Of a DNA stretch of 61,800 nt, positions 50,796 to 55,214 are shown piece after piece; the first letter of the stretch is position 1, and every line of letters begins with the position of its first letter. The notes beneath the pieces are model-generated. The model did no database searches. It had not been told where the DNA came from and worked only from the letters and a program-made list of their open reading frames with translations. The DNA comes from Patescibacteria group bacterium (GTDB lineage Bacteria; Patescibacteriota; Patescibacteriia; UBA9934; GWF2-40-263). The stretch is from the NCBI GenBank assembly GCA_035290185.1, contig DATDUW010000014.1, positions 1 to 61,800 of the forward strand. Reading direction: 5' to 3'. A program made the position numbers and the translations under genes.

Positions 50796-52271
50796 CTATT
50801 TGAAGCGTTCTAAAATTTTTACAATCCCCTTCTCCGCATCCACTTCGACCAGGTCGCCGTCTTTCAAAATCCTGGTTGCCACCTTTGTACCAATCACACA
50901 CGGAATTTTCATCTCTCGACTAATGATGGCGGCATGACACGTAATTCCGCCTTCGTCCGTCACGACCGCGGTCGCCTTCTTCATGAGAGGAACGAATTCT
51001 GGACGTGTCATTCCCGTGACCAAAACCTCGCCTGTCTCAAACAATCGCCCTTCCACATCAATGTTTTTTACGACGCGAACGCGGCCCTGGACTCTACCTG
51101 GAGAACCGACTTGGCCGCGCAACGTTTGTTCTTCTTCTCCCTTCGTTTGTTGAAGAAGAAAAACTGATTCCATCCATTCCTTATTCCCTTCAAAATTTCC
51201 ATCTTCCCCTTCTTTCCGACCGTCAGAATGAACGAAAACCGCACAGCCCTCCTTTTCCCTGCGCTCAAACACATCTACCAGAGAGCGTAATACTTCGGTT
51301 CCACGTCCGATTTCCTCAAACTGACTATAAAGAATGTGCTTGAAATCCAATCCGGCTTCAGCAAAAGCCCGTTCGGCAACGCGATACGTTACAACGAGCA
51401 TTTTTCCAATGTCATCTTTGCGTCGGTCACGCCAATCCATGATGAATTGCAAATAACGAACGAGTTTTTGTCCGTCCTTGGGAAGCGTTGCCAGCCATTC
51501 TTTGTAGGACCGAACGCGTTCTGTCAGATCAATCTCTTCTTGTTTCAACCACTCTACGGCTTGTGCAGGATCCGCAATCCATTTCCCATATTTTTCCTGC
51601 AGAAGTGAACGTGTTTCTTCCTGGGAAGGAATATGGTGGTAAGCCGCTTCAAAATATTGGCAGGGCTCGACAAAATGATCCAACGTGCAGCCTTGTCTCA
51701 GAAGTCGAATGAACGTCTTCTCGCGCCTCTTATCGAACGAATCGGCCACGGGAGTCGTCGCGCGATTCCACAAAATTGCCACGTCAGATTCGGTAAGAGA
51801 GGATCCGACTGATTCCAGAAGGGAGACGGCCATTTCCTGGTCGAAATAAATCGAAAAGAAAGCAAGTGTATTAAGTTTCCACGTGTGATCCATGGCCCTG
51901 CAGGCACGTTCATACGCTTCTGGAAACGGACGAGTCGCGACAAATGCATACGTAAGTGTGTCGTACTCTTTTCCCATTTCTTCAGAAAAAAGATGGAATT
52001 GCTTTTCCTTTTCCTCAAGAAGGGAAGGTTTCGTCCAATATTTTTGGAAGACTTCCGAAGCAACCGCCTTGGCTTTAGAAATCGGAATGTACATGATGCC
52101 TTCCGACGCTCCGCAGAGAAGCAAAAGGGGGAAAGGTGTTCGATCCTCGTAAAAAGCATGAAAATAGGCGTCCGTATTCCAGCCATTGGCTTGGACGAAG
52201 ATCCGAGAGTTGTGGAGCGGCGGACTGAGTTCTAATCCATCCGCTTCGCGCAAAAAGGCTTCCGCAAGCAT
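50796..52271 (-). CDS. PEP-utilizer swivel (phosphohistidine) domain protein lacking ATP-grasp, paralog 3
   Basis: The C-terminus [10 protein letters not shown]...[46 protein letters not shown]...[19 protein letters not shown] is a PEP-utilizers mobile domain with the conserved His. The N-terminal 380 or so aa has no GGK-type ATP-grasp motif. Confidence 0.8.
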
Positions 52272-52282
52272 AAAGGAGAAAA

Positions 52283-53749
52283 TTAGGAAGAAGCGGGTTC
52301 TAAAATTTTTATGATTCCCTTCTCCGCATCCACTTCAACGAGGTCCCCGTCTTTTAGGACATCGGTGGCTCGCGCAACTCCCACCACGGCCGGAACGCAC
52401 ATCTCACGACTGATAATGGAAACGTGGGAGGTCAAACCACCTTCTTCGGCCACAATGGCTGCGGCTTTTTTAAGGATGCAAAGAAAATCTGGGCTGGTAT
52501 TCATGACAACCAAAATATTGCCGGCCTCCATCTTGGAAAAATCCTTCGGGTTTAAAATCACTTTGACTTTTCCTGTTGCTCGACCAAGCGAAGCACAACG
52601 TCCTTTTAAATCACCTGTTTTATTTTCGTGGGTCAAAAATTTTGTTCTGAAATCCCGTGCTTCGACACCTGTCAAGACGTAAAACACTTTCTGAAAAGTA
52701 ATCAGAACATGCTGGGAAATTCTTTCCGTTACACCCTGTTCATCCAAGGATTTTTGAAGAAGCAGATCCTTTATTTCTTCCGGCGATAAATCTTTCAAAC
52801 CGTCAACCGACTGGCCCGTTCTTTTCGCCAGTTCAAAAAATACGGGCTCACAAAAATAAATTGCCTGATTCATGAAAAATTTATAATGATCCTTCACAAA
52901 AGCCATTTTTGCTGCCAGCTGAGAGAGTGTCTTCAGCCGTTTATCGAGCTTTTTGAAAAACCGTTTTCTCTTCTCTCTCGTCTCTTTTTGATTCTGGTTT
53001 ATTTCTTTCAGACGCTTTTCAGGATCCATTGCAGCCACGGAAAGCAATTTTCGTCTGTAATCATCCAAGGTTTTGATGGGTTCGTTATAATAACCGAGCT
53101 CAGAATGACAGAATCTTTCCTGGATATTCGACAACGAGGATAAAACAGATCGCTGTTCGACCGTTAATCTTTTTTTGTTCATCTTAATGGCCAAATTGAG
53201 CATTTCTTTTTCTTCCTGCAAAGCAAAACTCAATGATCCATTCGCAGAAAGAAGGGCGGGAATTTCCGCGGTCCAACCAAACGTCTCAGAAGCCTTTTTC
53301 AATTCAGCGATGATTCCTAAATCAACCAGTCGAATCACGCTTGATGGACGCAAAAGACGATAAAAACAAGATACAAGGAGGTCGAGAAATTCTCTCAACC
53401 CTTCATCACTCATTTTTTGATAATCCCTCCGTAAAAGGTTGATGGTGGTCTGTCTCTGTTTTTTTAGATAGCCCAAAAGCCTATCGGCCAAACGCGGCTG
53501 ACAGACAAACCCCTCAAGGGCCTTGGCATATTCAGATGAGTCCTTGTGGATGCGAAACCACTTCGCCTGGTGGTTGGTATAAGCCGAAACCGTATTGATG
53601 TCTCCCAAGGGCCAATCAGGATTCTCAACGGAGTATTGTTTGATTAAAAGGTAATCAAAAAAATAAAAAGCCGCCCGCCCACCTTCCGGTTGAAATTGGT
53701 ATGCGTCTAAAGATTCAGGAAAAACATTCTGGGGGTCGGATGAAATCAT
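52283..53749 (-). CDS. PEP-utilizer swivel domain protein lacking ATP-grasp, paralog 2
   Basis: ...ILVVMNTSPDFLCILKKAAAIVAEEGGLTSHVSIISREMCVPAVVG...[19 protein letters not shown]. It lies 11 nt upstream of paralog 3. Confidence 0.8.
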   Translation of the reverse strand: MISSDPQNVFPESLDAYQFQPEGGRAAFYFFDYLLIKQYSVENPDWPLGDINTVSAYTNHQAKWFRIHKDSSEYAKALEGFVCQPRLADRLLGYLKKQRQTTINLLRRDYQKMSDEGLREFLDLLVSCFYRLLRPSSVIRLVDLGIIAELKKASETFGWTAEIPALLSANGSLSFALQEEKEMLNLAIKMNKKRLTVEQRSVLSSLSNIQERFCHSELGYYNEPIKTLDDYRRKLLSVAAMDPEKRLKEINQNQKETREKRKRFFKKLDKRLKTLSQLAAKMAFVKDHYKFFMNQAIYFCEPVFFELAKRTGQSVDGLKDLSPEEIKDLLLQKSLDEQGVTERISQHVLITFQKVFYVLTGVEARDFRTKFLTHENKTGDLKGRCASLGRATGKVKVILNPKDFSKMEAGNILVVMNTSPDFLCILKKAAAIVAEEGGLTSHVSIISREMCVPAVVGVARATDVLKDGDLVEVDAEKGIIKILEPASS

Positions 53750-53759
53750 AGATTTTTCA

Positions 53760-55214
53760 TCAAAGGATTTTTACTATCCCTTTCTCCGCATCCACTTCGA
53801 CCAGATCGCCGTCTTTCAATAATTTTGTACAATTGCCTGTTCCAACGATACACGGCTTTTTCAGTTCCCTGGCAATAATGGCGGCGTGGGACGTTATTCC
53901 ACCCTCTTCCGTTACGAAAGCCGCGGCGATTTTCATGGCATGTGTATAATCGGGCATCGTCGTCCTTGCAATGAGGATCATGCCGGGTTTCACTTTTTTC
54001 AGATCTTGTTTGTTAAAAACCAACACAGTAGGTCCGGCGGCCACCCCCTTGAACGCAATCATCCCTTTAATGGTCTTATCCGTGGTTTTTGTAAAAGCGG
54101 CAACTATTTTGTCCACCTCTTCTTTTTGTGCCATTATTTCCGTTCGCTCGGTATCCCGATAATAAACAGCTCCTTTCCTCTCGGGAATCCGTTCATAAGC
54201 AGGAATAATCCCATCAGAAAGATAGGAAATAATTTCCGCATTGAGCAGACTTACAACCAGCGGCCGCGTCCATAACAGACTGGTTTCGTTTCTTAAAAAT
54301 TCTGCGACAGATTCAAAAATAATTCTTCCTGAACACTGAATCTTTTTAAGAAGATCTATACGATCGGATCGCAAAAATGTATACGTGTTCAAAATCTTTA
54401 CCGACAAGCGCTGTTGATCCGTTCTGAGCATGGGAAAAATCCTCTCCATTTCCTCCCTTCCTTTTTCAAGCTCGTACAAAATACGCGTCTTTTCTTCAAG
54501 AGCTTGGACAGGAGACATTTTTCCCATTTCCTCAAGGAAAAATGCGGAATCAAGTAAAGGTTCCACATAGGAATACTCTCCATACCAACCAAACTTCTTG
54601 GACAAGTCGCGGCTTTTTTCAAGAGGAGATACGCGTTCAAGAACGGCATCACAAATTTCTATACGCATCTTTTGAAACTCATTGGCAAGCGTGGGCATCC
54701 CGATGGCTTGAAATATATCTTCCCCCTTCACAGGTTCTTCCTGCATGATCTGTTCATGGAAACGCGGCGAAAGAATTTTTTCAATCGCAAAAGGCATGAA
54801 GAGATAATCCGCAAGCTCCTGAATACATCCGAGGAAGGATTGATAGGCCGTCAAAAGATCCTTTTTTGTCTTTGGGAACGTTTCGAGCGATCTTATTTCC
54901 ACGGCGTATTTTTTCGTGAGGTGCTGATAAGTATCCAAATGCTTCTCAAAATTTCCTGGTACGAGCATGGTTTGGATCAAATGCTCCAACAACTGTTCCC
55001 AACTTTTCTTTTCCACATAAAGGGCTCGGTTGTCTCCTTCTAACGGAAGGCTCACAAGCGTTGGTCGAAAATCCTTCTGGTATTTTTCCAAAAGAAGATA
55101 GACCATTTCATCCCGCTGGATGGATTGCGGCCGAGAAGCCAGAAAAGAAAACCGCTTCGCAGGATCCACCAAAAGATCGTTCGCAACCATAGACGTTCCA
55201 ATGGAAGATTTCAT
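53760..55214 (-). CDS. PEP-utilizer swivel domain protein lacking ATP-grasp, paralog 1
   Basis: ...ILIARTTMPDYTHAMKIAAAFVTEEGGITSHAAIIARELKKPCIVG...[19 protein letters not shown]. It starts 6 nt after the murD stop. Confidence 0.8.
   Translation of the reverse strand: MKSSIGTSMVANDLLVDPAKRFSFLASRPQSIQRDEMVYLLLEKYQKDFRPTLVSLPLEGDNRALYVEKKSWEQLLEHLIQTMLVPGNFEKHLDTYQHLTKKYAVEIRSLETFPKTKKDLLTAYQSFLGCIQELADYLFMPFAIEKILSPRFHEQIMQEEPVKGEDIFQAIGMPTLANEFQKMRIEICDAVLERVSPLEKSRDLSKKFGWYGEYSYVEPLLDSAFFLEEMGKMSPVQALEEKTRILYELEKGREEMERIFPMLRTDQQRLSVKILNTYTFLRSDRIDLLKKIQCSGRIIFESVAEFLRNETSLLWTRPLVVSLLNAEIISYLSDGIIPAYERIPERKGAVYYRDTERTEIMAQKEEVDKIVAAFTKTTDKTIKGMIAFKGVAAGPTVLVFNKQDLKKVKPGMILIARTTMPDYTHAMKIAAAFVTEEGGITSHAAIIARELKKPCIVGTGNCTKLLKDGDLVEVDAEKGIVKIL

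Follow-up and report, generated by a model that had tools for sequence, protein, structure and literature searches.

A tandem trio of swivel-domain proteins resembling rifampin phosphotransferase in a Patescibacteria genome, and its array-forming relatives in bacteria and archaea

Three tandem genes on the minus strand of a 61,800-nucleotide (nt) stretch from a Patescibacteria group bacterium (GenBank assembly GCA_035290185.1, contig DATDUW010000014.1, positions 1 to 61,800; hereafter ‘the window’) encode paralogous proteins, A, B and C, each of which joins a helical N-terminal domain to a C-terminal mobile ‘swivel’ domain with a predicted phospho-accepting histidine. We consider it reasonably probable that they are diverged acceptor subunits of a split, rifampin phosphotransferase (RPH)-like small-molecule dikinase, charged in trans by an ATP-grasp protein whose gene lies at another site in the genome. 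That their N-terminal domains are related, at the level of homology, to the rifampin-binding domain of RPH we hold with high confidence. Relatives of the trio are found in bacteria of the candidate phyla radiation (CPR) and in DPANN archaea, and it is the family-level pattern of arrays, eight-module megaproteins and embedded phosphatases that forms the surprising and testable part of this study, the local finding alone being of moderate interest.

Domain architecture of the trio

The trio had been picked out in an earlier reading of the letters alone (the sequence-only reading) as three tandem open reading frames (ORFs), and re-reading the sequence returned the same lengths and gaps. Paralog A (484 amino acids (aa), 53760–55214), paralog B (488 aa, 52283–53749) and paralog C (491 aa, 50796–52271) are separated by 10 nt (A to B) and 11 nt (B to C), with 6 nt between A and a Mur ligase gene and 73 nt between C and ligA. 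Gene callers start paralog A at Met9, which gives a protein of 476 aa and not 484 aa.

All three proteins carry the swivel domain PF00391 at the C-terminus by Pfam (A, residues 409–479, E = 6e-27; B, 408–478, E = 6e-23; C, 411–482, E = 7e-25), each with its predicted phospho-accepting His in a recognizable motif, as the sequence-only reading had claimed. The residue is His443 in A (EEGGITSH443; codon 53886–53888) and His446 in C (DEGGITCH446; codon 50934–50936), both aligned with the catalytic His of phosphoenolpyruvate (PEP) synthase and of RPH, and His442 in B (EEGGLTSH442; codon 52424–52426), placed by motif position and alignment; all three codons lie on the minus strand. By BLASTP among A, B and C, likeness is confined to the swivel domain, at 50–53% identity, and the swivel domains are closest to that of PEP synthase, with approximately 50% identity to the swivel of archaeal PpsA.

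The N-terminal domains place the trio with RPH. Profile comparison indicates that those of A, B and C are homologous to one another and deeply diverged, with hhalign joining C to the A subfamily at E = 3e-60 over 418 columns and to the B subfamily at E = 3.5e-52 over 427 columns. An AlphaFold2 model was built for C alone, from 83 sequences, A and B being tied to C by hhalign; it has a predicted local distance difference test score of 96.2 and a predicted template modelling score of 0.94, and shows an all-helical N-terminal domain followed by a beta-rich swivel domain. A Foldseek search of the PDB with this model returned RPH-Lm for all top six matches, over the whole length (E down to 8e-14, approximately 575 columns), whereas matches to PpsA, pyruvate phosphate dikinase (PPDK), enzyme I and pyruvate kinase covered the swivel domain alone. 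The subfamily profile aligns to RPH-Lm residues 657–866, with an R-D-x-x-K motif sitting on Y-R666-E667-Y-P-K670, and NCBIfam PigC/RedH/RPH-like models match B at residues 241–484. The earlier description of the trio as RPH-like proteins with a helical, substrate-type domain and a swivel is borne out by these structural matches, the profile alignment and the hhalign links.

Each paralog belongs to a widely distributed subfamily of its own. A falls in an orthologous subfamily with 35–47% identity across CPR bacteria and DPANN archaea that includes members fused to PPDK_N, the ATP-grasp domain, and B has its own orthologous subfamily across the same two groups, with orthologues of up to 57% identity. 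C represents the most widespread type and as a query retrieved more than 2600 relatives, nearly all from Patescibacteria (CPR) and DPANN archaea; CPR and DPANN members of the family share approximately 35–45% identity. The relatives of C come in two architectures, a swivel-only form of approximately 490 aa and a form of approximately 810 aa that begins with PPDK_N. Over its full length C aligns with residues ~323–812 of the fused relatives and thus corresponds to the long form minus its ATP-grasp. Among the best 120 matches of each search (A, B and C), swivel-only forms far outnumber PPDK_N-bearing ones.

The segment shared by the three proteins just before the swivel domain, to which the sequence-only reading had drawn attention, is real and comprises the catalytic helix together with a conserved Glu. 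In RPH-Lm, the second half-reaction requires Arg666 and Glu667 of this helix, and even the remotest clades of the superfamily retain the Arg-Glu...Lys block (PMC4844700). The counterpart in C, by profile-to-RPH alignment, is R281-D282-R-R-K285 (51417–51431, minus strand), opposite R666-E667-x-x-K670; in a joint alignment of 198 sequences from the three subfamilies, R281 is conserved in 100%, D282 in 98% and K285 in 96% of subfamily C. B has a Lys in the first position (K286-D287-H-Y-K290; 52880–52894, minus strand), the three key residues being conserved in 100, 97 and 97% of its subfamily, respectively. A carries a variant, R282-S283-D284-R285-I286 (54357–54371, minus strand), in whose subfamily R282 is conserved in 89% of members (Lys in a further 10%), Thr or Ser replaces the acid, Val or Ile replaces the Lys, and R285 is invariant. 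Because the variant is conserved within subfamily A, we read it as divergence and not as decay. Also common to the A, B and C subfamilies are a Glu (E320, E327 and E325, respectively) and an Arg (R338, R346 and R343).

An ATP-grasp domain was sought both in the proteins and around them. Pfam finds neither PPDK_N (PF01326) nor the PEP/pyruvate TIM-barrel (PF02896) in A, B or C. A hidden Markov model (HMM) of the ATP-grasp, trained on residues 1–325 of 20 fused relatives, recovered all 21 positive controls (E <= 1e-130); run with filters off against the six-frame translation of the window, it gave nothing better than E = 7. A sister contig identical to window positions 55850–61800 extends 5.1 kb past the window end, where it encodes an alpha-2-macroglobulin-like gene, a Memo/PGA_cap gene and a P-type ATPase, and no ATP-grasp. 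The sequence-only reading, which had seen no ATP-grasp in the N-terminal regions or among the neighbours, is thus upheld by Pfam, NCBIfam and the family HMM, and no complete PPDK_N was found in the N-terminal regions by Pfam or NCBIfam. We also set aside an ATP-grasp hidden in those regions: the Pfam and NCBIfam searches are negative, C aligns only with the part of its long relatives that follows the ATP-grasp, and the modelled N-terminal domain is all-helical. With no PF01326 match in the proteins and no ATP-grasp HMM match in the window, the trio falls outside the canonical single-chain enzymes of the RPH type.

Arrays of related modules in CPR bacteria and DPANN archaea

To place the trio among its relatives we annotated more than 90 loci (numbered here with the prefix L) with HMMs for the three N-terminal subfamilies, the swivel and the ATP-grasp. 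The contig scan was seeded on the swivel motif, and the many ordinary PpsA loci were removed with the N-terminal HMMs; a metagenome scan with paralog B gave one weak locus. Typically, 2 to ~17 strongly diverged modules lie in a co-directional tandem array that includes exactly one ATP-grasp. Eleven arrays have exactly one ATP-grasp in cis (L001, L004, L007, L009, L010+L015, L013, L018, L026, L087, L088 and L089), and L096 is a further array whose single ATP-grasp is part of a fusion of 1110 aa (5231–8563). The domain is encoded by a stand-alone gene of approximately 313–340 aa in L001, L010+L015 (a Nealsonbacteria contig with ~17 modules), L013, L087, L088 (12 modules) and L089, and a stand-alone ATP-grasp subunit was also recorded in the clusters of L022 and L037.

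Elsewhere the ATP-grasp and the leading module or modules form one protein, as in L004 (a 793-aa head, then at least 10 modules), L009 (1311 aa, 384–4316), L018 (1233 aa, 8021–11719) and L026 (1410 aa, 5480–9709), where it precedes consecutive modules. Fusions join one ATP-grasp to 2, 3 or 8 modules, with the His kept in every module. The eight-module case, L007 (Woesearchaeota JAFGGS010000004.1, 1922–13207), is a 3761-aa ORF in which one ATP-grasp is followed by eight units of helical plus swivel domain, all eight with the His. An ORF of at least 2937 aa in L019 (1–8811), cut at the contig start, likewise holds eight swivel domains. The modules of such giant fused ORFs come in two size classes of approximately 340–370 aa and 465–490 aa. 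For the trio itself, the closest comparison is with the nearest relatives of A or B that have usable context, and in all four of these (L087, L088, L089 and L096) the array includes an ATP-grasp.

We lean, if only slightly, towards a hub-and-spoke reading of this layout, with a single ATP-grasp charging a large number of different acceptor modules, as many as eight on the 3761-aa polypeptide. Phosphatase genes also recur inside the arrays (His_Phos_1 three times, HAD twice and LMWPc twice; in or abutting arrays at L088 15411–15818 and 18494–18919, L004 7172–7714 and 19447–20028, and L001 13989–14579), which hints at a cycle of phosphorylation and dephosphorylation; no such phosphatase gene lies near the trio of the window. 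A full-text literature search found no description of the CPR/DPANN clade, of its arrays of one ATP-grasp and many modules, or of the multi-module megaproteins.

Proposed mechanism and alternatives

In the mechanism that we propose, a separate PPDK_N-type ATP-grasp protein, encoded elsewhere, would bind ATP and phosphorylate the swivel His (A443, B442 and C446), releasing AMP and Pi. The phosphorylated swivel domain would then dock back on its own helical domain, where the helix with the [R/K]-D-x-x-K motif would align the phosphoryl group with its acceptor, a hydroxyl or carbonyl oxygen on a small molecule bound there. Substrates would differ from paralog to paralog, the three diverged helical domains providing three specificities, and one ATP-grasp unit would serve many acceptor modules. 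For the trio we infer that charging occurs in trans, that the substrates are small molecules and that the specificities differ. The sequence-only reading had also offered a substrate-diversified set, and this is consistent, on sequence grounds, with the deep divergence of the N-terminal domains and with the orthologous subfamily to which each paralog belongs. Since a class of split dikinases has already been characterized, the donor would most simply be a PPDK_N ATP-grasp protein using ATP. The trio, an orphan of low GC content, is most likely a remnant or outpost of a larger array, with its ATP-grasp elsewhere in the genome.

Several observations weigh against the proposal of acceptor subunits charged in trans. 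There is no ATP-grasp within approximately 67 kb, covering 50.8 kb downstream and ~11.7 kb upstream of the trio, so that the partner in this organism is assumed. Other bounded arrays besides that of the window (L014, L027, L030 and possibly L011) have no ATP-grasp in the fetched DNA, nor do several single genes, for example L005 from Woesearchaeota; such arrays are a minority, making up approximately 30% of bounded arrays. Paralog A has neither the acid nor the Lys of the catalytic motif. NCBIfam PRK08296-type models match the swivel domain only, and membership of the trio in the class of characterized split acceptor subunits would rest on architecture and not on a sequence relationship beyond the swivel. 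The orphan arrays and single genes also fit proteins that work independently of any ATP-grasp, either as transphosphorylases that pass phosphate through the His from one small molecule to another or with phosphate supplied in trans by a different donor, for example a PEP-dependent enzyme of the PPDK or PpsA kind. A precedent exists in HpeH, the swivel-bearing subunit of the two-component dikinase HpeHI, which on its own moves phosphate from 4-phosphoacetophenone to acetovanillone (PMC12167813), and the closeness of the swivel domains to PEP synthase points the same way. We nevertheless regard such independence as unlikely, given the ATP-grasp in the arrays of the four nearest relatives, the PPDK_N-fused members of subfamilies A and C, and a window that has no PPDK or PpsA gene (its 899-aa ORF, considered as a PPDK, is ClpB). 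A broader version, in which the trio and the other orphans operate with no ATP-grasp anywhere in the genome, through a non-canonical donor or a phosphoryl-exchange network, would put the RPH-like acceptor module to a new use; it strikes us as decidedly doubtful.

The orphan state of the trio, unlike that of its nearest relatives, together with its low GC content (43–48% against 51–54% in flanking genes) and the many fragmentary members of related arrays (for example, swivel-only ORFs of 70–130 aa), could alternatively mark the leftover of a larger array that lost its ATP-grasp head and is non-functional or on the way out. Three full-length ORFs at 10–11-nt spacing, with the catalytic His and the subfamily-invariant residues kept, do not look like decay, and contigs assembled independently from several samples carry identical copies of all three genes; we find a decaying remnant quite unlikely. 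The substrates might instead be proteins or peptides, phosphorylated by the same swivel chemistry on, for example, Tyr-like phenolic hydroxyls: LMWPc phosphatases, which are of the phosphotyrosine type, recur in related arrays with His_Phos_1 and HAD phosphatases, and the characterized split relatives all phosphorylate phenolic hydroxyls (PMC12167813). These phosphatase families also act on small-molecule phosphoesters, however, and all characterized members of the RPH-like superfamily act on small molecules (PMC4844700, PMC12167813), which makes protein substrates improbable. That the three are ordinary PEP synthase or PPDK in fragmentary or misannotated form, as the public names of relatives and the approximately 50% identity to the PpsA swivel might suggest, is refuted by domain content and can be given almost no weight: there is no TIM-barrel and no PPDK_N, the likeness is limited to the swivel, and the N-terminal domain is RPH-like.

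Genomic setting and comparison with known enzymes

The trio lies between a Mur ligase gene and ligA, and the sequence-only reading had accordingly placed it inside a cell-wall and replication operon, an assignment that we do not retain. Related arrays are flanked by unrelated housekeeping genes that differ at every locus, so the murD/ligA setting is incidental. Between the stop of C and the start of ligA, moreover, lies a strong intrinsic-terminator-like hairpin (50740–50771, minus strand; ACCGGCGG-TATTTT-CCGCCGGT followed by a T8 run) with an 8-bp stem of which 7 pairs are G-C, the best such site in 48000–58500 and 17 nt upstream of the ligA start; ligA would need read-through or a promoter of its own. 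On these two grounds we discard the idea that the trio is functionally tied to murD or ligA. Both neighbours are context genes outside the system. LigA, an NAD-dependent DNA ligase by Pfam, is encoded downstream of the hairpin (48677–50722, minus strand). The gene on the other side had been named murD; its identity as a Mur ligase stands (Pfam Mur_ligase_M, Mur_ligase_C and MurD-like_N), but the 605-aa ORF is over-extended, the gene call being 481 aa (55221–56666, minus strand) with a start probably at 56666, and the long ORF overlaps the 3′ end of a 335-aa gene at 56704–57711. No match to a known anti-phage defence system was found with PADLOC.

The trio stands out as an island of low GC content (43.8% in A, 43.0% in B and 48.2% in C, against 51–54% in the flanking genes), with the N-terminal domains lower in GC than the swivel domains, and may have been acquired horizontally. 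Over their final ~58 nt (50807–50864, 52297–52354 and 53759–53816), which encode a C-terminus ending in ...[V/I]KIL, the three genes share 84–90% DNA identity, and in these blocks 62% of identical residues use identical codons, compared with 30–45% in the remainder of the swivel domain. This likeness, seen in three gene pairs, may stem from local gene conversion or from nucleotide-level constraint at the gene junctions. As a general feature of the arrays gene conversion was not supported, the excess of shared codons within arrays being modest and in keeping with shared codon usage, with the 3′ ends of the trio as the exception.

Other features of the window were recorded alongside. The 335-aa protein encoded two genes upstream of the trio (56704–57711, minus strand) was considered as an ATP-grasp and rejected (hhalign probability 0.7%); it has no Pfam, NCBIfam or PDB match, and only 25 detectable homologues of approximately 310–350 aa among 1.8 billion representative proteins. 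The ClpB encoded at 2876–5575 (minus strand, 899 aa) is full length, and a 699-aa Clp/AAA-like protein at 34999–37098 (minus strand) gives much weaker scores, with partial AAA_2, AAA_lid_9 and Clp_N matches. MopE-type putative metal-binding repeats (PF11617) number nine in the protein encoded at 6751–8919 (plus strand) and two in that at 24613–25986 (plus strand), the latter also with a weak, sub-threshold beta-propeller (SBBP) match; both proteins are probably secreted or at the surface. ORFs at 1383–2858 (491 aa) and 17398–18828 (476 aa), both on the minus strand, have no Pfam, NCBIfam or family-HMM match. Further low-GC stretches lie at 44001–46000 (39.8%), adjoining a HicA-toxin-like gene in the gene calls of the sister contig L002, and at 28001–30000 (43.0%).

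CPR bacteria and DPANN archaea have genomes of approximately 1 Mb and a very limited metabolism. That some of them give 10–25 kb to arrays of these modules, one with ~17 members, points to an important phosphorylation chemistry directed at many substrates. Candidate roles include scavenging, the detoxification or inactivation of metabolites of hosts or competitors (compare RPH and the rifamycins) and activation of the PigC type. With the one-to-many layout and the megaproteins, the swivelling-domain paradigm would broaden from one shuttle to a multiplexed one, and the fusions offer natural Rosetta-stone cases for the interaction between ATP-grasp and acceptor subunits. Thousands of relatives bear public names such as ‘PEP-utilizing enzyme’ or ‘phosphoenolpyruvate synthase/pyruvate phosphate dikinase’, which can mislead metabolic reconstructions of CPR and DPANN organisms; given the absence of the PEP/pyruvate domain, the PEP synthase/PPDK name is wrong for the family.

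Among single-chain enzymes, RPH-Lm (PDB 5FBS, 5FBT, 5FBU and 5HV1) is the best whole-length structural match to C. The Arg-Glu...Lys helix of the RPH-like superfamily, which includes PigC, RedH and HapC, is common to B and C, with a variant in A, the swivel His is kept in all three, and the relatives of A and C of approximately 810 aa have the full RPH order of ATP-grasp, helical and swivel domains, whereas the proteins of the window are without the ATP-grasp. The helical domain shares only approximately 15% identity with RPH, and there is no reason to infer rifamycin as a substrate. With PEP synthase (PpsA) and PPDK the trio has in common the phosphoryl-carrier chemistry and a swivel approximately 50% identical to that of archaeal PpsA; it differs from them in having no ATP-grasp or PEP/pyruvate TIM-barrel and in an unrelated N-terminal domain.

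The closest counterparts by architecture are two-component dikinases. In HpeHI, a hydroxyphenylethanone kinase described in 2025, the ATP-grasp resides in HpeI, whereas HpeH holds the domains for substrate and swivel; ATP-dependent activity requires the two together, and the H581Q substitution in HpeH abolishes activity (PMC12167813). CreHI, a 4-methylbenzyl phosphate synthase, and the phenylphosphate synthase PpsAB are homologous two-component dikinases (PMC12167813). Like HpeH, CreH and the PpsA subunit of phenylphosphate synthase, which show approximately 45% pairwise identity to one another, the trio proteins combine a helical domain of the RIF-binding type with a C-terminal swivel His and no ATP-grasp in the chain, and the CPR/DPANN relatives, like HpeHI, CreHI and PpsAB, have a separate ATP-grasp protein in the same cluster. 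The notion that the class and its phosphodonor lacked precedent must accordingly be given up, since two-component RPH-like dikinases with a separate ATP-grasp are characterized (PMC12167813) and the four nearest relatives carry PPDK_N in their arrays; the view that the family is an already characterized class with a known donor is borne out in part. There are differences. The trio swivels keep the GGxT[S/C]H motif of the PEP synthase type, in distinction to HpeH, CreH and the phenylphosphate synthase subunit. HpeHI, CreHI and PpsAB are encoded as 1:1 gene pairs within clusters for aromatic catabolism in Actinobacteria and Proteobacteria, whereas the trio comprises three paralogs with no partner gene nearby, and its relatives have 2 to ~17 acceptor modules per ATP-grasp. 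The split RPH-like dikinase is thus an established class, and what appears to be new is its expanded CPR/DPANN clade with a hub-and-spoke layout.

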